From sequence record PX880099.1: a stretch of DNA of 64,000 bases. One strand, 5' to 3'. Position numbers and translations under genes: made by a program. Every line of letters begins with the position of its first letter. Position 1 is the stretch's first letter. The notes under the pieces are model-generated. The model had not been told where the DNA came from. It ran no database searches and saw nothing but the letters and a program-made list of their open reading frames with translations. Shown piece by piece: positions 12,439 through 28,951 of the stretch. This DNA is from a phage.

Positions 12439-13899
12439 GTGCCAAAAATAGTCACTTGGGAACAATATAAAACAGATATAAAACAAGCTTATCAAGGTAA
12501 GTCTTGGACTGTTGTAGATTATATTGAGCCGTGGAACGGCAATAAAACTAAACTTAGATGCATCTGTGCTCTGCATGGAGAATGGAAAACAACAAGCATA
12601 AATACCGCTAAACTAGGGAGGGGTTGTCCAGAATGCGGTAGGGAGATTATAAGTAAAGCAGTATCTATAAACAAATCAAAAACCTGGGAGCAATATAAAG
12701 AAGAAGTGCAAACCACTTACAATCAGGCAGGTAAGTTTTGGACTGTTACAGGATGGCACGGAGAATGGAAAGGATGGAATACTAAACTGGTTTGTTGTTG
12801 TGCTTTACATGGGGAGTGGAGGTCTACTTCTATATCTTCTGCGAAAAACGGGAGTGGATGCAGGAAGTGTATGGGAGAAGCAAACAGAGAAAGAACATCG
12901 ATTGCATGGGAGCAATATAAAGAAGAAGTAGAAGAAGCTTATAAAGAAAAACCCTGGATTGTTAGAGGCTATGTGGAACCGTGGAACGGTTCCCGCACTA
13001 AGTTGATTTGTGAGTGTAAGGTTCATGGTCAATGGTGCACTACCACTGTAAACAGTGCTAAACAAGGGACTGGATGCTACAGTTGTCAAAGAGAAATGAC
13101 GAAACAAAGGAATACAATGGAGGATAAACAACATGTTGAAGATTTTATAAAAGCTTGTCCTGATAATGTAGAGCGTAAATATTATCGTAGCGATAGAGTA
13201 GATAGATTAGGTCGTCAGGTTTACTGGATTGTAGAATGTCCTATATGTGCAGAGGATGATTATTGTAAAGAAGGCTTATGCGATAATAAATTTGAGATGA
13301 AGATGAGTCATTTGAAAAGGGGTGGCCTTCCTTGCCGTTGTTCTAAATATTATCATTACACTCCTGAACAATGGGCCTACCGTATGACCAAAGCTTGCCA
13401 GGAACGAGGGGATCAATTTATAGGATTCATTGATAAGGTAAGCAATAACAGCAAGTTTAAATATCTATGTAGGGAGCATGGAGAGCAAACGATCACACCT
13501 ACCGATTATCTCAATGGGAAAGGTTGTCCAGGCTGTAAGAACAGAAATATGCAAGAATTTTACATCAATATTATTCTTGATGAGTACGGAGAAGACACGG
13601 GAGCTTACAAGTTGGGGATTGCAAAGGACAGTGATATCAGGATCAAAGGGCAGAATGCAAACAACAATTACTCTATGCGCCGTATAGCATTGTTCGATCT
13701 GCCGTCCTACCAAGCTTGCAGGGCGTTAGAGAGTAAGCTAAAGTCTAAGACTGATCAGATTCTACCGTCTATTGGCTGTGTAGAACGCTTGCACATGAAA
13801 GATGGTCATAGTGAAACCTTCCTGCGCGAGGATTTGGCTATCGTCTTAAGTGCTATCAACCAAGCAGGTGGAATAATGAGAGAGGAGGAAACATGTTAG
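12439..13899 (+). CDS. cysteine-rich protein with three tandem about 70-aa modules, probable zinc-binding (GTG start)
   Basis: Module WEQYK...EPWNG..TKL.C.C..HGEW.T......G.GC..C repeated three times, then a Cys-rich C-terminal half. Confidence 0.55.
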   Translation: MPKIVTWEQYKTDIKQAYQGKSWTVVDYIEPWNGNKTKLRCICALHGEWKTTSINTAKLGRGCPECGREIISKAVSINKSKTWEQYKEEVQTTYNQAGKFWTVTGWHGEWKGWNTKLVCCCALHGEWRSTSISSAKNGSGCRKCMGEANRERTSIAWEQYKEEVEEAYKEKPWIVRGYVEPWNGSRTKLICECKVHGQWCTTTVNSAKQGTGCYSCQREMTKQRNTMEDKQHVEDFIKACPDNVERKYYRSDRVDRLGRQVYWIVECPICAEDDYCKEGLCDNKFEMKMSHLKRGGLPCRCSKYYHYTPEQWAYRMTKACQERGDQFIGFIDKVSNNSKFKYLCREHGEQTITPTDYLNGKGCPGCKNRNMQEFYINIILDEYGEDTGAYKLGIAKDSDIRIKGQNANNNYSMRRIALFDLPSYQACRALESKLKSKTDQILPSIGCVERLHMKDGHSETFLREDLAIVLSAINQAGGIMREEETC

Positions 13900-14271: not shown

Positions 14272-14451
14272 ATGGCACGTTTAGCAGATCATGAAATCTT
14301 TAAACCTATTCTGAACCACTATGATGAACTTAAAGCAGTGTTGGATTGTTATAGAGAGGATGAAGAACGTTTGGAAGTCAATCTTAAGATAGTTCTGATG
14401 AAAGCTTTTCAAGACGGGCAAGCTAAAGTTTTAGAAGGCATGAAAAAATGA
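14272..14451 (+). CDS. small hypothetical protein
   Basis: Start re-picked to ATG (MARLADHE) after AAAGGAGAA. Confidence 0.45.
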   Translation: MARLADHEIFKPILNHYDELKAVLDCYREDEERLEVNLKIVLMKAFQDGQAKVLEGMKK

Positions 14452-14990
14452 GAATAACTGATGAATATGTATTCTTCTTTTCACATAAAGATGTGTTTAG
14501 TAATTGGTATATTGCACCCTTTACAGAAACTGAACCAGGTTACAATGAGACTTTCTGTTGTGTTGAGCAATATATGATGTGGCGTAAGGCTTTGCTGTTC
14601 AAGGATCATGCGATTGCAGCAGCTATCCTTGATCACTCAACTATACGTGACAACGAGAGGAAACAAGCATACTACAAACGTATGGGTCGAGCGGTATCTG
14701 GTTTTAATAATGATATGTGGGAAGAGAACCGTGAGCGTATTGTTATGCGAGGCTTATGCTTGAAATATGTACAGAATCCAGATTTGTATGCAGACTTACA
14801 CCTTTACCAATACAAAACGTTTGTTGAAGCAAATCCTTACGATAAGGTTTACGGTATTGGAATGGGAATGTATGAACCAGGGGTGCTAAACCCTGCTACC
14901 TGGAAAGGGCAGAATCTTTTAGGCAAATATCATAATAAACTGATCGAAATACTTTTCCCAGACAAAATACCGCAAAGACGATATTTGTGA
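14448..14990 (+). CDS. NADAR-domain (YbiA/DUF1768-like) protein, candidate ADP-ribose-processing enzyme
   Basis: 180 aa; FFFSHKDVFSNWYIAPF, CVEQYMMWRKALLF, W..NRERIVMRGLCLKY.QNPDL, GIGMG...W.GQNLLGK match the NADAR pattern. Confidence 0.7.
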   Translation: MRITDEYVFFFSHKDVFSNWYIAPFTETEPGYNETFCCVEQYMMWRKALLFKDHAIAAAILDHSTIRDNERKQAYYKRMGRAVSGFNNDMWEENRERIVMRGLCLKYVQNPDLYADLHLYQYKTFVEANPYDKVYGIGMGMYEPGVLNPATWKGQNLLGKYHNKLIEILFPDKIPQRRYL

Positions 14991-15233
14991 TATTTTAACT
15001 TTTTTCATTTTTAGAACAAAGGTGTCACTTTGTAGCACAGAAATAAGGCTCCTACAGCACCGTAGAGAGCCTGTTATTTTGTCCTATACAAACCCTTGTC
15101 TTTTTCAGTTTGCATCACTAGGATTCGATCTGAGTGGGTTCCTGAAGGTTTACCAATAAGATTAAAGGTTATATCAAATTCCCACTATCTTTTATCTCAA
15201 AAATCCCTCAAATTATTTAAACTTTTTAAGAAT

Positions 15234-15418
15234 TTACAAAAGTGAAAGTTGAAAACCAAAATTTAAAGTTTAGGAAAATTATCTTAAAATGTTAGATACA
15301 AAACAAAACTCAAAAGTCAAGGAAAATTTTAAAAATTTTGCGCGCCCACAGTATTTAAAGTTTTTTTGCTTTTACAAAAATGAAAGTACAAAAGCAAAAT
15401 TTAAAGTTTACAAAAATT
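15234..15418. repeat. pair of about 48-bp direct repeats (15234-15280 and 15371-15418) in an AT-rich non-coding region
   Basis: TTTACAAAAGTGAAAGTTGAAAACCAAAATTTAAAGTTTAGGAAAATT vs TTTACAAAAATGAAAGTACAAAAGCAAAATTTAAAGTTTACAAAAATT. Confidence 0.6.
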
Positions 15419-15433
15419 TTTATGCAGGTGAAA

Positions 15434-15548
15434 ATGAGAAGAGTTCTCATATGGAAATGCAAATGATAATGATTCGCATTTAAGTTTATAAATGAGATTG
15501 ATTCTTATTTAATAAGGTAAATGACAATCATTCTCATTTAGAGAATGA
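15434..15548. promoter_or_regulatory. cluster of palindromic hairpin or operator-like sites built on ATGAGAA/TTCTCAT and AATGAnAAT..ATTCTCAT (Fur-box-like)
   Basis: ATGAGAA-GAG-TTCTCAT (15434-15450), AAATGC-N15-GCATTT (15455-15481), TCATTCTC-ATTTA-GAGAATGA (15528-15548). Confidence 0.45.
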
Positions 15549-15761
15549 CGCGCAGGGGCGGTGTTTGTCTCGCGCTCCCGTGTCCACTCGCCATGTAATA
15601 AGAATAACAGATCCAGCCAGGAAAGCAAGCGATTATTTTATCTTTACATTTCTTTACAAATATATAGCACCCAGCCTACCGGCGATCAACCTTCCAACCA
15701 GTGCCCCCTGGTATGTTAGCCCCGCCTTTACGCCGTGGGGTGGCGCTTCCTCTTCTGTATG
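15541..15761 (-). ncRNA. candidate structured non-coding transcript from a GC-rich island
   Basis: Strong minus-strand promoter at 15768-15796, then about 220 nt of GC-rich sequence with several short stems and no ORF of 60 aa or more on that strand. Confidence 0.25.
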
Positions 15762-15767
15762 TAAAAC

Positions 15768-15796
15768 AGTATAAGCCCGATCCCTGGGCTTGTCAA
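15768..15796 (-). promoter_or_regulatory. sigma70-type promoter on minus strand (TTGACA-17-TATACT)
   Basis: Reverse complement reads TTGACAAGCCCAGGGATCGGGCTTATACT. Confidence 0.5.
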
Positions 15797-15798
15797 GA

Positions 15799-16065
15799 TT
15801 ATTTTTTGTTTTCTTGCCAGGATAGGACACCTAACCAAAAATACATATCGCCCCGCGCCCCTGGTGGTATCTTGCTTTCCCCGCCGCCACTGCAAGCCCA
15901 TAGATAACCATTTGCGAACGTATCAAAATGATCTATCTCTTCCACCTTATGATCGCCCAGGTTGAGAACGGTTTCAACCTTTAAGCCCGTTGCGCTTGCT
16001 ACCTGGTGCACCGTGCCGCCTTGCCAGCCCAATGAGTGCATAAGGTGTAATGTAGTATTTGTCAT
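15799..16065 (-). CDS. hypothetical protein (GC-rich, compositionally atypical)
   Basis: 88 aa ORF with upstream minus-strand TTGCTA-17-TATTAT promoter and a GCGCC..GGCGC hairpin in the leader. Confidence 0.35.
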   Translation of the reverse strand: MTNTTLHLMHSLGWQGGTVHQVASATGLKVETVLNLGDHKVEEIDHFDTFANGYLWACSGGGESKIPPGARGDMYFWLGVLSWQENKK

Positions 16066-16173
16066 GATATCGCCCTTTCTTTGTTGTGCGCCCTGGTTGG
16101 CGCGGTAGAAAGATAATAGCCCTTTTCTTTATATATAGCAAGCAAAAAGAAAATAAAAAAGATTGAAAAATGG

Positions 16174-16230
16174 TTGACGTTAACCAGGCGGCGGCGTAGT
16201 ATTCATCTTGTAGGGCGGCAATGGTGCCGC
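16174..16230 (+). promoter_or_regulatory. PeSL-like cassette 1: early promoter plus GC hairpin
   Basis: TTGACG-N17-TAGTAT, then GCGGCA-ATGG-TGCCGC. Confidence 0.6.
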
Positions 16231-16251
16231 TCACTATTTGGAGTTAAGATC

Positions 16252-16449
16252 ATGGCAACATTGCACATTGTGGCGAAAGCTGGACAAATCAACGTAGTGG
16301 TAAACGGTTTTACTGAGTTCAGTCACCCCCAGGATGATCATGAAACGGTTTTATCTTTCATTGATTCCCTGTTAGAAATGGGAGTCATTACAGAAGACCA
16401 GCACGCTACAAAATGCAAGCGCGTTAATCAAATTGTAGGAATAGAATAA
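16252..16449 (+). CDS. small early protein
   Basis: 65 aa; start at ATG (MATLHIV); track extension is read-through of the hairpin. Confidence 0.5.
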   Translation: MATLHIVAKAGQINVVVNGFTEFSHPQDDHETVLSFIDSLLEMGVITEDQHATKCKRVNQIVGIE

Positions 16450-16455
16450 AAAGTA

Positions 16456-16515
16456 TTGACAACAAACAACAACCTGATAAGATGTATCACATAGGGCGGC
16501 GGAATGGTCCACCGC
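16456..16515 (+). promoter_or_regulatory. PeSL-like cassette 2
   Basis: TTGACA-16-TAAGAT, hairpin GCGGCGG-AATGGT-CCACCGC, conserved leader CACAACAGAAGAGAGATTATCA. Confidence 0.65.
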
Positions 16516-16540
16516 TCACAACAGAAGAGAGATTATCATC

Positions 16541-16813
16541 ATGGCATCATATAGCGCAACAATGATCGTAGCTGGCACCACTGGTAAACCTATGCGCGGT
16601 GGCGGATCTTTCGCTAATATCAATATTGACGGGCGTTTATCCCTGGACGCAGCGATCACCGTGGCGCGGGAAACATTTAAGAAAGAATGTAAATTCAATA
16701 AACAAGATTATCTCGGTTTTGCTATTGAAAAAACCGCGCGCTTTGTTGATTATAAAAGCCCGAAAATGGTTGACACTACATTAAAAGCGCAAGATGTAGC
16801 GTTTTTGCTTTAA
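16541..16813 (+). CDS. small early protein
   Basis: 90 aa ORF behind PeSL leader. Confidence 0.55.
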   Translation: MASYSATMIVAGTTGKPMRGGGSFANINIDGRLSLDAAITVARETFKKECKFNKQDYLGFAIEKTARFVDYKSPKMVDTTLKAQDVAFLL

Positions 16814-16816
16814 GGC

Positions 16817-16871
16817 TTGACATTAACGAATAATTTGTTAATATGTTACATAAAGCGGGAATAGTTCCCGC
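16817..16871 (+). promoter_or_regulatory. PeSL-like cassette 3
   Basis: TTGACA-16-TAATAT, hairpin GCGGGAA-TAG-TTCCCGC. Confidence 0.65.
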
Positions 16872-16889
16872 TATTTGTAAGGTGGTAGA

Positions 16890-17147
16890 ATGTTTTACAT
16901 CAAATTAAAAGGTCACGTGATCGCGTTCAAAGATAACGCTTTTTACAGATTAGCAAAATATGCGTTAATACATCCCCACTATGTTTATATAAGGGGGCGT
17001 GATGAAATAAATATCTTTGATCAAACAACATGCGAGAACATCGAGATCCGCAAGGTTGGCGTACGTGATTATCGTACATCTTTCTACCCTTGCAAGGATT
17101 CAGCAAGTCTTTTTAAAGTATGCCAATTGTTGAAAAAAGGTGGTTAA
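16890..17147 (+). CDS. small early protein
   Basis: 85 aa ORF. Confidence 0.5.
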   Translation: MFYIKLKGHVIAFKDNAFYRLAKYALIHPHYVYIRGRDEINIFDQTTCENIEIRKVGVRDYRTSFYPCKDSASLFKVCQLLKKGG

Positions 17148-19720: not shown

Positions 19721-19776
19721 TTGACACGGGAAAGAAAAAGAGTAAACTGTATTACGTAGGGCGGCAATAGTGCCGC
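19721..19776 (+). promoter_or_regulatory. PeSL-like cassette 10
   Basis: TTGACA-16-TAAACT, hairpin GCGGCA-ATAG-TGCCGC. Confidence 0.65.
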
Positions 19777-19801
19777 TCACAACAGAAGAGAGATTATCAC
19801 G

Positions 19802-22811: not shown

Positions 22812-22867
22812 TTGACAAGTCCGCCTAGTCTGATAATATGTATCTTGTAGGGCGGCAATGGTGCCGC
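22812..22867 (+). promoter_or_regulatory. PeSL-like cassette 18
   Basis: TTGACA-16-TAATAT, hairpin GCGGCA-ATGG-TGCCGC. Confidence 0.65.
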
Positions 22868-22888
22868 TCACAAGAAGAGAGAAAAATC

Positions 22889-27036: not shown

Positions 27037-27051
27037 TTGACAACAAAACAA

Positions 27052-27077
27052 GGGCGCACCAAGCGCCCTTTCTTTTT
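27052..27077 (+). terminator. rho-independent terminator
   Basis: GGGCGC-ACCAA-GCGCCC followed by TTTCTTTTT; closes the PeSL gene cluster. Confidence 0.65.
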
Positions 27078-27283
27078 GCCCGAACAATATTGATAGCTTT
27101 CGCCTATGAAAAACCGACACAGAACAAAACTGAATAAATCGCGGTATCGAGCTAATCAACCAGCAAACGAATAACCATACCTCCCAGGGTTACAGGCTGT
27201 TAGAGAGCCATTTAGAGCGGTTAAAATCGATCAACAACCAACAACAAACCATCAAAAACACCCTTTTACCTCCTTTCTAGTGC

Positions 27284-27302
27284 AATGATAACCATTATCA
27301 TC
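27284..27302. promoter_or_regulatory. near-consensus Fur-box-like site
   Basis: AATGATAACCATTATCATC, 15 of 16 positions match the core of GATAATGATAATCATTATC. Confidence 0.4.
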
Positions 27303-28037
27303 TACCCATGATTATCTATGCAATATAAGCGCATAATTATAATGTTGATAATAGTTCGCAACAACTAACCAACAAACAACATAAAACAATAAGCAAACTA
27401 ATCATAATCAAAGGAATAATAGCAAGATGATTGATAACGACAAACAATCAAACCATGATGAATACTAAGCAAGATAACGATAACACGACAAAACAACCAA
27501 CTAACGAACAATAACAAACGAAACCATTAAAATAATAACTATTAGCAAAATAGTGCATGAATGAAATCATTACAAAACGAATCATTCATAGAGTCATCAT
27601 TAGCACGCTATGCCGGACACATAGCGAGCTAATAATAAGCCAACTACACCCCAACAATCATAACCATCGGTGATGGTTATTTCTTGTTACTGCGTAGCTT
27701 GCAATAATTGCAAGCGTAATGACGCTTACACTTATTGCGCTGGCTTATTATTAGCATTATATGTAATTACCAAGATCATAACATTAGCGCAATAACAATA
27801 ATCATTGTGGTAATTACGTAAGGAAACAATTAGCATGGCAATAATTATGGGGGCAATGGGAGGATGATTATCATCATTCCGATACATTGCACACTATGCA
27901 CATAATAGAATAAAAAGCAATAATTTTGGGGGCGAAATGTTACCGCCACAGGCGGGAATGTTGAGCAAGTTCTCTTAAACGTAAATAAAATCAGAATAAT
28001 CTTGATTTATTTTAGTTTTTATGTTAATAAACGTTTA

Positions 28038-28056
28038 AATAATAATCATTCTCATA
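28038..28056. promoter_or_regulatory. AATGAnAAT..ATTCTCAT motif copy
   Basis: AATAATAATCATTCTCATA. Confidence 0.35.
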
Positions 28057-28215
28057 TAAATAATAGTCTGCTTGTCATGAGCGGGATTAGTTGACAATGT
28101 TCCGTCATATGATGAGGTTGCCAAGCCATTGATAAATAAGTGTTTGTGTGATTTATAATCAGGTGGCCCACCTTGTCGCTATGTTGGCATGAGCCTTGCA
28201 TAAGTCATTGAATAC

Positions 28216-28236
28216 GAATGATAATTATTCTCATTC
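28216..28236. promoter_or_regulatory. palindromic AATGAnAAT..ATTCTCAT motif copy
   Basis: GAATGA-TAATTATTC-TCATTC. Confidence 0.4.
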
Positions 28237-28576
28237 GCATGATATTTGGGAATTGTCGCTGCGTGGACCTGACGGCCCGAAAATTCGCGTTAAGCACTTC
28301 TTACGTATGCACCATGATTTTTGCCATATCATATTGATTCTATTAGATATTCTTGCCATGATTGCCATGAAACAGGGTGTCCCGAAATAATCTCTCCCCG
28401 TAGATATTTTGGGTTACTTTTTATACAAGAGTGGGGTGTCAAAAATAATCGGTATATATGGGATAATTGATAGGAATCCCCTATGATAATTCGATTGTAA
28501 TTCCCTAAGATTGATCGTATGATGTTGGTGATTAATGATTGCCATGAAAGATGGCTAACGATGAGAGGAGATTATC

Positions 28577-28951
28577 ATGCAAGAGAGTAAAAATGTTCCG
28601 TTGAGCAGTGCAACATTGCTTCGCTTCTATAAAGCATGGATTGCCAACTATCCTGCAATGAATCGCACAACGAGTGGCTTATGTGGTTGTCTGGTAGATT
28701 ATGTAGATGATTTTGTTGGTGAGACAACTAGAGAAGAAGATAGAAGATGGCGTGATCATTTGTTGGACCGTTTGAAATATGAAATGAGGAAACAATTTAC
28801 ATGTGCAGGGTTGGACTACAATCTTCCGTTCAATGCAGATTGCATGGATTACCTTTCAGAGTGTATAAACTTGGCGTGTCATACCAACACGTTACGTCTT
28901 CAATGGGTGAAAGACAGAATTGAAGATGCAAATAATGCTTGCATTGAATAA
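28577..28951 (+). CDS. paralog family A member 1
   Basis: FYKAWI...GLCGCL...NLPF...RLQWVKDRI shared with four other genes. Confidence 0.6.
   Translation: MQESKNVPLSSATLLRFYKAWIANYPAMNRTTSGLCGCLVDYVDDFVGETTREEDRRWRDHLLDRLKYEMRKQFTCAGLDYNLPFNADCMDYLSECINLACHTNTLRLQWVKDRIEDANNACIE

Follow-up and report, generated by a model that had tools for sequence, protein, structure and literature searches.

A minus-strand locus below position 15796 of the 64,000-nucleotide stretch of phage DNA analysed here (sequence record PX880099.1; henceforth the window) carries a previously undescribed, phage-restricted non-coding RNA candidate, which is supported by comparison of homologous phages and appears to lie inside a regulatory hub with Fur-box-like sites. 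The original prediction for this locus, made from the letters of the window, was a strong promoter driving one structured, GC-rich non-coding RNA of about 220 nt. Its core is supported by sequence comparison: the locus is conserved across phage subfamilies, has kept its promoter, contains no conserved reading frame and shows compensatory changes in paired positions. The single 220-nt RNA does not stand, as comparison of the relatives resolves the unit into a composite of an RNA module of about 88 nt (RNA1), an AU-rich linker, a candidate second promoter (P2) and a weakly supported hairpin (RNA2). We lean towards reading the locus as a promoter-driven, structured, early phage small RNA of a new family that would act in trans via invariant unpaired segments. 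Judged by the 1.2 kb around the locus, which share 99.9% identity with Escherichia phages vB_EcoM_3A1_SA_NWU and Ro121lw and 98.5% with ESCO13, the window derives from a Phapecoctavirus (phAPEC8/ESCO13-like) of the subfamily Stephanstirmvirinae, i.e., from the virulent myoviruses of about 150 kb. The first promoter (P1) and the elements of RNA1 are located as follows.

15768–15796, minus strand: promoter P1, TTGACA (15796–15791), a 17-nt spacer and TATACT (15773–15768), 11 of 12 matches
15674–15761, minus strand: conserved core of RNA1, about 88 nt, placed by a covariance-model match (15671–15760), conservation, an insertion in phage Ro1 and a record break in phage LTH01
15731–15745, minus strand: RNA1 hairpin S1, CGCC (15745–15742) pairing with GGCG (15734–15731), loop ACCCCAC
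15720–15739, minus strand: probable pseudoknot, loop CCC (15739–15737) pairing with GGG (15722–15720)
15694–15716, minus strand: RNA1 bulged hairpin S3, ACAUACCA ... UGGUUGG, with a variable tip
15674–15693, minus strand: invariant 3′ tail of RNA1, AAGGUnGAUCGCCGGUAG, probably unpaired

A promoter scan placed P1 exactly where it had been predicted and ranked it as the top-scoring site within 14500–17000. Sigma-70-like sites with at least 11 of 12 matches number 12 in the window, compared with 3.1 ± 1.7 in composition-preserving shuffles, and P1 is the sole such minus-strand site inside a block of plus-strand genes that extends from 8.2 to 45.5 kb. Its hexamers are near-consensus and spaced within the 16–18 nt range of sigma-70 promoters, and the positions of the −35 and −10 elements are kept in all relatives, the most divergent group included. 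The spacer itself forms a GC hairpin (AAGCCC-AGGGATC-GGGCTT, 15791–15773) a few bases past the stop codon of an 88-amino-acid (aa) open reading frame (ORF), and in relatives it is still a GC-rich hairpin, yet of differing sequence, e.g., GGCCCGGCGAAAGCTGGGCT, GGGGCGAAAGCCCC or CCAGGCTTGCGCCTGG. This hairpin is listed as terminator-like by a terminator scan and probably also serves as terminator, or 3′ hairpin, of the transcript of the upstream ORF. The GC-rich island into which P1 points does contrast with the AT-rich sequence to its left (GC content of 0.45–0.56 at 15500–15800 versus 0.20–0.26 at 15150–15550, in 100-nt windows). Its extent was drawn too narrowly and too uniformly in the original prediction, as the GC-rich zone extends through the ORF at 15799–16065 and holds an AT-richer linker at approximately 15600–15665.

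Conservation was assessed by a sensitive BLASTN search of positions 15500–15830 against GenBank phages, which returned 235 records. Ninety-nine of these match at just 60–80% identity and belong to Vequintavirinae (Seunavirus, Certrevirus, Mydovirus, Henunavirus and unclassified members) and to other Stephanstirmvirinae, and the hosts of the matching phages include Escherichia, Salmonella, Klebsiella, Cronobacter, Pectobacterium, Erwinia, Enterobacter and Serratia. In the distant phages, the DNA alignment is confined to a region from about 15501/15520 to 15765, which begins at a set of palindromes described below and stops where RNA1 starts, immediately past the −10 element. The genes flanking this block are not alignable at the DNA level, and the homologous interval is almost always unannotated. 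Since the 88-aa ORF has homologues in some lineages only (it is found in W70, KP13-26, alia and phiTE and is not clear in Seunavirus or Mydovirus), the non-coding block is better conserved than this protein neighbour. Across 44 distinct sequences, RNA1 has a mean column identity of 83% and contains the invariant runs ACGGCG, GGCU, UACC, AAGGU and AUCGC. A covariance model built from this alignment scores 100.7 bits at 15671–15760, compared with 9.4 bits for the next-best match in the window, in which RNA1 is single-copy.

The 5′ end of RNA1 would lie at about 15761–15758, and three observations place its 3′ edge near 15677–15674. Besides the end of conservation itself, Raoultella phage Ro1 carries a 197-codon HNH-endonuclease ORF (phrog_953, E = 7.6e-79) inserted exactly after RNA1 (...GAUCGCUGGUA). 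The inserted ORF has its own Shine-Dalgarno sequence and runs, in the RNA sense, from +32 to +626 after RNA1; the TGTAAAGA repeats of the linker, the RNA2 loop and one palindrome resume about 730 nt beyond RNA1. The linear GenBank record of phage LTH01 (PP430345.1) breaks at the same nucleotide, between GGTA and G (...GATCGCCGGTA on one side and GCTCGCC... on the other), and the records of five close relatives of LTH01 are not cut at RNA1. The insertion and the break may reflect coincidence, a homing site or a DNA end, and they mark the 3′ edge of the conserved module. A genome terminus at RNA1, which we considered as several records start nearby, was rejected: the usual start or end of records from Stephanstirmvirinae falls in another non-coding gap at 27040–28577, and LTH01 alone breaks at RNA1. 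A divergent group of metagenomic sequences keeps P1, with its spacer hairpin, and RNA1, whereas the sequence that follows is another one, in which TGTAAAGA repeats, RNA2 loop and palindromes are all missing. Because this group joins P1 and RNA1 to other sequence, and because the Ro1 gene is inserted right after RNA1, we regard RNA1 as an independent module.

The absence of a plausible minus-strand ORF, as originally claimed, was borne out. Past P1 the strand offers just two frames, one of 18 codons from ATG and one of 39 codons from TTG, neither of them conserved, and a 58-codon minus-strand frame at 15654–15830 begins upstream of P1. A small protein-coding gene, either a 69-codon plus-strand frame at 15565–15774 or a short minus-strand peptide, is nevertheless conceivable, as the plus-strand frame is annotated as a 69-aa hypothetical protein in one GenBank record (phage Ro121lw) and this antisense strand is open from stop to stop over 65–81 codons in many relatives. 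We consider such a gene very improbable. Most records lack the annotation, the frame starts with TTG and has no Shine-Dalgarno motif upstream (judged by eye; no scan was made), and it has no PHROG match. Close relatives differ by frameshifting indels of 1, 2, 4, 5 and 6 nt, which sit in the tip of S3 and in an A-run of the linker, so that neither the plus-strand frame nor the short minus-strand frames are conserved. The longest ORF with a start codon has anywhere from 15 to 77 codons among homologues, the open frames differ in length and phase, and the variable columns of the alignment show no 3-nt periodicity. A leaderless peptide from the ATG at the start of RNA2 was likewise rejected, as this ATG is ATA in about half of the relatives.

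We tested the structure of RNA1 on the 44-sequence alignment, taking together S1 (4 bp), the pseudoknot pairing (3 bp) and the bulged hairpin S3, and compared it with versions in which partners were slid by 1–3 columns and with 500 column shuffles. Pairing is possible in 90.3% of cells versus at most 45% when partners are slid, and neither the covariation score nor the count of double changes was reached by any of the 500 shuffles. The compensatory substitutions expected of a structured RNA occur at three column pairs: 48–70 and 53–66 in S3, and 25–40 in the pseudoknot. Pair 48–70 is A-U in 30 and G-C in 14 sequences, and since the switch is seen inside otherwise closely related groups (BIS47 versus L016, L028 and L031), it does not trace to one inherited event. 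Pair 53–66 is A-U in 23 sequences, C-G in 3, G-C in 3 and G-U in 1, with 14 mismatches that fall in lineages with longer tips; pair 46–72 is G-C in 5, G-U in 4 and A-U in 2, with A/G in the remainder. For the pseudoknot, 36 sequences have C-G and 6 have A-U at pair 25–40, which 2 leave unpaired, and pair 23–42 shows one U-G. The S3 tip varies in length by 2 to 12 nt with the stem retained. S1 pairs in 97.7% of cells, and its pairs are invariant and hence uninformative as to covariation. The CGCCG of the tail can also pair with CGGCG (15735–15731) to the exclusion of S1, a pairing available in all 44 sequences (99.1% pairable) that likewise shows no covariation, so RNA1 may have two states (CGCC:GGCG versus CGGCG:CGCCG). 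A helix GGCGG:UCGCC that RNAalifold proposed for the 3′ tail was discarded, as it is broken in the nine most divergent sequences.

The distribution of RNA1 is restricted to phages. Exact-pattern scans recovered the core in phage-sized or fragmentary viral and metagenomic contigs, and in 185,579 species genomes they hit one 4-kb contig of a metagenome-assembled genome; the complete genomes that bear RNA1 are those of enterobacterial phages of roughly 120–153 kb only. A looser DNA pattern gave 120 mostly chance loci, and the covariance model found no true homologue in the 79 of these that were listed, with one marginal 18.5-bit match at another position. An origin from, or mimicry of, host sequence was rejected at the sensitivity of a BLAST search in which the 226-nt unit, run against 5,426 complete genomes of E. 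coli, gave only chance 21-mers (E = 9). Scanning against RNA family models, as proposed along with the original prediction, yielded no match: Rfam 15 has nothing overlapping 15545–15796 at E ≤ 10 in a 2.5-kb scan and nothing at the homologous place in eight divergent loci at E ≤ 5, and ARAGORN found no tRNA or tmRNA at the locus. Searches of the literature by taxon, theme and literal sequence strings revealed no description of RNA1. Several known RNA types were also examined and set aside. A hepatitis delta virus-like ribozyme fails when drawn by hand, as the segment that would form its first helix, UAAAGGC, has no complement in the purine-rich 5′ end. Likenesses to signal-recognition-particle RNA (4.5S; CCAGGUC..GGAAGG), to CsrA-binding GGA motifs and to Shine-Dalgarno mimicry, all noted by eye, involve motifs that are not conserved in the divergent group, and the first of these also lacks an Rfam match.

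From these data we propose the following course of events. Host sigma-70 RNA polymerase would read the minus-strand non-coding unit from P1, whose spacer doubles as the 3′ hairpin of the upstream ORF, and so produce RNA1 of about 88 nt. This RNA is predicted to begin with a purine-rich 5′ end, followed by the 4-bp hairpin, the C-rich loop of which forms an H-type pseudoknot with a run of G further downstream, then by the bulged hairpin and the probably unpaired tail AAGGUnGAUCGCCGGUAG. Beyond RNA1, the unit would continue with the AU-rich linker, the weaker P2 and the RNA2 hairpin of about 50 nt, after which transcription would enter a Fur-box-like operator array and an AT-rich repeat region. 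RNA1 would act in trans early in infection, and its invariant unpaired segments would bind a partner, protein or another RNA, that is common to these phages or to their enterobacterial hosts. As no gene lies downstream of the unit on the minus strand among the ORFs of the window, the RNA is not a 5′ leader.

Several results weigh against a structured RNA that acts in trans. Shuffled sequence folds as stably as the 217-nt sense RNA does (z = 0.06 for its minimum free energy; z = 1.04 for the antisense), and an argument from thermodynamic stability thus fails; the multiple short stems of the original prediction can be drawn, yet they are energetically ordinary and no evidence by themselves. The structural case is therefore wholly a comparative one, and here most RNA1 pairs are invariant, the covariation comes from three or four pairs, and kinship among the sequences inflates the counts. 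The pseudoknot has two exceptions. Counts of G-U versus A-C pairs in RNA1 do not tell the strands apart, so that the strand assignment follows from the promoters and from the G-U pairs of the weak RNA2 helix. Compensatory changes among homologous phages, in S3 and the pseudoknot, support RNA1, whereas covariation in the outer helix of RNA2 does not exceed that in shuffles and RNAalifold does not recover this helix. A terminator scan and comparison of the relatives revealed no clear intrinsic terminator after RNA1 or RNA2, and the searchable literature shows no transcriptome or transcript data for these phages. Finally, the rest of the window holds no exact match to the complement of the tail and three matches with 2 mismatches; including the site of the tail itself, the 4 matches compare with 1.3 expected, a number that 2 of 100 shuffles reach and that is marginally above chance.

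The main competing explanation is that P1 and P2 give rise to origin-of-replication transcripts, firing into the AT-rich repeat region at 15160–15550 and thereby activating or priming replication. Known transcripts of this kind include RNAE of phage T4 oriE, the R-loops of T4 oriF and oriG, the transcripts at the primary origin of T7, with its tandem promoters and AT-rich region, and RNA II of ColE1, and like these the locus would produce one or more untranslated early transcripts aimed at an AT-rich repeat region. The geometry agrees, although geometry is all that is compared: tandem promoters point at a tract of 0.20–0.26 GC, which holds a 72-nt direct repeat at 138-bp spacing (15209–15280 and 15347–15418), shorter iteron-like repeats and an A/T palindrome that adjoins GCGCGCC (15323–15348). 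GC-flanked A/T palindromes such as CCCTAAAAAATTTTTTCGC and GC-flanked AAAAAATTTTTT motifs recur at the matching relative place in distant relatives. The RNA would moreover be G-rich (plus-strand GC skew of −0.25 to −0.35 at 15600–15750), which favours R-loops, and no gene follows on the minus strand. A primer or activator transcript, however, needs neither 83–87% sequence conservation nor compensatory changes in a hairpin, and the known systems do not depend on RNA sequence and structure being strongly conserved across genera. In Ro1 the endonuclease insertion of about 730 nt parts RNA1 from everything downstream, and in the divergent group other sequence lies downstream of it; RNA1 is kept both at a distance from the AT-rich region and beside another such region. 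The cumulative GC skew tracks the direction of the genes: it turns near 8 kb and 46 kb and has no extremum at 15.5 kb. Taken together, we judge an origin transcript to be unlikely, if the most serious of the alternatives.

A DNA-level element without RNA function would be a site that a protein binds or cuts, e.g., terminase, a homing endonuclease, a regulator of the phage or a host factor such as Fur; the promoter hexamers would then be incidental or serve only the neighbouring ORF. Such an element would explain why four Fur-box-like palindromes and two TGTAAAGA repeats, which have the look of protein sites, directly adjoin the block, why the 3′ edge of RNA1 falls where the Ro1 gene is inserted and where the linear LTH01 record ends, and why the fold energy is ordinary and the G-U versus A-C counts of RNA1 are not strand-specific. 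Compensatory changes at separations of 22 and 14 columns (48–70 and 53–66) are unexpected for a site recognized as duplex. The tip, moreover, changes length while its stem is kept, the −35 and −10 elements are conserved in every lineage, and the five relatives of LTH01 are not linearised there while many Stephanstirmvirinae records start or end in 27040–28577. These points render a pure DNA site quite unlikely in our view. Still less probable is a cis-acting element of the nascent RNA, i.e., a processive antiterminator like put of phage HK022, an attenuator or a switch, that would set how far leftward transcription from P1 extends antisense to the plus-strand genes. The put RNAs are cis-acting antiterminators located past early promoters; like them, RNA1 would be a structured non-coding RNA of about 70–90 nt directly after a strong sigma-70 promoter of early type. 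The put RNAs, however, consist of two simple stem-loops and act on downstream terminators and genes, whereas RNA1 combines a pseudoknot with a bulged hairpin and is followed by no gene or clear terminator on the minus strand, both in the window and in most relatives. The mutually exclusive helices CGCC:GGCG and CGGCG:CGCCG, each at least 97% pairable, do have the geometry of a two-state RNA, and in Ro1 the inserted endonuclease gene effectively has RNA1 as its 5′ leader, but neither of the alternative helices covaries, and even at permissive thresholds neither the locus nor eight homologous loci match a riboswitch or leader family of Rfam.

A trans-acting small RNA thus remains the reading that we favour, and it would have precedents among phage small RNAs with their own promoters, i.e., OOP and PreS of lambda, sar of P22, c4 of P1, CI RNA of P4 and the species 1 and 2 RNAs of T4. 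RNA1 would resemble these as a short, untranslated, promoter-driven, structured and intergenic RNA of an early or regulatory region. It differs from them in having no sequence or Rfam relation and no antisense target overlapping it, in belonging to a lineage of virulent myoviruses of about 150 kb, and in being conserved across subfamilies above the level of neighbouring protein genes. PreS has been the subject of a study (bioRxiv 10.1101/2024.10.31.621285).

A further likeness is to ToxI and the pseudo-ToxI of Pectobacterium phage phiTE, pseudoknotted RNAs that function as antitoxin or decoy, of which ToxI is organized as tandem units of about 36 nt beside a toxin gene. RNA1 is also a phage non-coding RNA with a pseudoknot, and phiTE itself carries an RNA1 homologue. 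In contrast to ToxI, RNA1 is single-copy and non-repetitive. A type III toxin-antitoxin RNA was rejected on these grounds, as neither RNA1 nor RNA2 contains a tandem repeat and the flanking ORFs belong to no toxin family; the Rfam scans also matched no family of any kind in the window region (E ≤ 10) or the homologous loci (E ≤ 5), although the presence of a ToxI model in the library was left unchecked.

The Vequintavirinae and Stephanstirmvirinae include many isolates for therapy or biocontrol of E. coli, Salmonella, Klebsiella, Cronobacter and plant pathogens, and the early regions of these phages consist of almost wholly unannotated small genes. The RNA1 locus offers a concrete and cheaply testable candidate for a small-RNA family with its own promoter and a kept fold, situated beside apparent sites for a host iron regulator. 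Its partner could show how these phages take over or sense their hosts, and a curated RNA family would fill a place that annotation pipelines leave blank or occupy with a spurious ORF. A bolder and rather doubtful extension is that RNA1 founds a new class of phage RNA that uses its tail and pseudoknot to dock on a machine or ligand conserved in enterobacteria (RNA polymerase, the ribosome, RNase E/Hfq, a sensor of a defence system or a small molecule, for example), perhaps toggling between its two pairings, within a hub that senses the state of the host and in which the Fur-box array couples read-through or local replication to iron. If that were true, RNA1 would be an RNA-based takeover or sensing device common to two subfamilies often proposed for therapy.

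The remaining elements of the unit and its immediate surroundings are listed below.

15641–15658, minus strand: two TGTAAAGA direct repeats in the AU-rich linker, 10 bp apart from start to start, read from the sequence
15601–15628, minus strand: candidate promoter P2, TTGCTT (15628–15623), a 16-nt spacer and TATTCT (15606–15601), 8 of 12 matches
15545–15596, minus strand: RNA2, a plausible irregular hairpin with outer helix AUGGCG:CGUCAU and conserved apical loop GAGACAAACACC (15571–15560)
15433–15538, no strand assigned: four 19-bp palindromes of consensus AATGAGAATnATTCTCATT, starting at 15433, 15462, 15491 and 15520, exactly 29 bp apart
15799–16065, minus strand: upstream small ORF of 88 aa (phrog_19316), annotated in relatives, outside the RNA unit and in the same minus-strand islet

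The pair of TGTAAAGA repeats is conserved as TTTGTAAAGAAnTGTAAAGA in most relatives. The repeats are separated by one turn of the helix, immediately precede the −35 element of P2 and look like a site for a response-regulator-type or phage protein. P2 itself fell under the threshold of the promoter scan, but its TTG and TAnnnT are fixed in position across relatives, with a variable spacer. For RNA2, most homologues individually fold to a similar elongated hairpin with the conserved loop at its tip, and the outer helix pairs in 85% of cells versus at most 58% when slid. Its G-U pairs (37 cells) imply that the helix could exist in the minus sense only. Given the shuffle results above, the RNA2 hairpin is plausible rather than established.

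The palindromic hairpins at 15528–15548 had been suggested as a terminator for the RNA. The hairpins are real, and the terminator scan flags one at 15527–15549, with 9 pairs, of which only 3 are G-C, and the tail TGTCATTTAC. Its sequence, however, makes up half of a conserved palindrome array, whose last member the hairpin overlaps, and termination there is doubtful because the stems are AU-rich and no U-tract follows. We consider the array a set of candidate protein-binding operators, for which protein binding is more likely than termination, with a roadblock or hairpin effect on read-through as a further possibility. The window contains 6 sites within 3 mismatches of AATGAGAATnATTCTCATT, compared with 0.08 expected; two of them, at 28038–28056 and 28217–28235, lie outside the array in a second gap at 27040–28577 (about 1.5 kb without convincing ORFs), and one to four copies are kept in relatives.

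The palindromes resemble the Fur box, a 19-bp iron box, GATAATGATAATCATTATC, that is also read as a 7-1-7 motif, TGATAATnATTATCA. Counted by hand against the 14 positions of this 7-1-7 core, the copies of the array match at 10, 12, 10 and 12 positions and those at 28038 and 28217 at 12 and 13, and a palindrome consensus, TGAGAATnATTCTCA, is common to phages of Escherichia, Salmonella, Klebsiella, Cronobacter, Pectobacterium and Erwinia. The arrangement differs from that of Fur sites in two respects: the palindromes lie downstream of P1 and P2 rather than over a promoter, and they are regularly spaced at 29 bp, whereas clustered Fur sites have been described that typically overlap by 3 or 6 bp (PMC2189734). 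All of the hosts are Enterobacterales, and conservation of the palindromes is not matched by conservation of the small ORF. From this we infer that, as a candidate for binding the palindromes, a host factor such as Fur deserves preference over a phage-encoded protein. More speculatively, six Fur-box-like sites on a multi-copy phage genome might titrate Fur or sense iron.

The second large non-coding gap of the window, at 27040–28577, shows conservation in Stephanstirmvirinae alone. It contains the first or last position of many GenBank records from this subfamily (e.g., Mt1B1_P17, ESCO37, phi92 and vB_EcoM_01), and it may hold a conventional or physical genome terminus.

The window has minus-strand genes as far as about 8.6 kb, plus-strand genes at 8.2–45.5 kb and minus-strand genes once more from 46.8 kb. 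The locus forms a 1.1-kb minus-strand islet (approximately 15100–16140) embedded in the plus-strand block, in which the stop codon of the 88-aa ORF abuts P1. The islet is bordered by a NADAR-domain gene (14448–14990, plus strand) on one side and by a run of small plus-strand genes, each with a near-consensus promoter, on the other. Relatives show the same arrangement of plus-strand genes, a non-coding gap of 0.3–0.9 kb, in most cases a small minus-strand ORF (CR8 and pEa_SNUABM_55 have none annotated) and further plus-strand genes. The NADAR-domain protein (Pfam PF08719, E = 1.7e-34), encoded directly upstream of the non-coding region, may be an anti-defence factor; NADAR enzymes reverse guanine ADP-ribosylation.

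On the plus strand between 16400 and 26600, near-consensus sigma-70 promoters with at least 10 of 12 matches form a dense series, approximately one per small gene of the early region. A hairpin, TAGGGCGGC...CCGCTCAC, recurs on this strand at 16211–16234, 16492–16519, 19757–19780 and 22848–22871 (4 exact pattern matches in the window versus 0 expected). Its copies at 16211 and 16492 are located just 3′ of a promoter-like site and 5′ of a small early gene, and such sites are annotated in relatives as pairs of a promoter followed by a terminator. Further upstream, the plus-strand gene at 12439–13899 encodes a 486-aa protein with three internal WEQYK...C.CALHGEW...T...SAK.G.GC..C repeats, reminiscent of zinc fingers, whose homologue in phage alia is annotated as an endonuclease.

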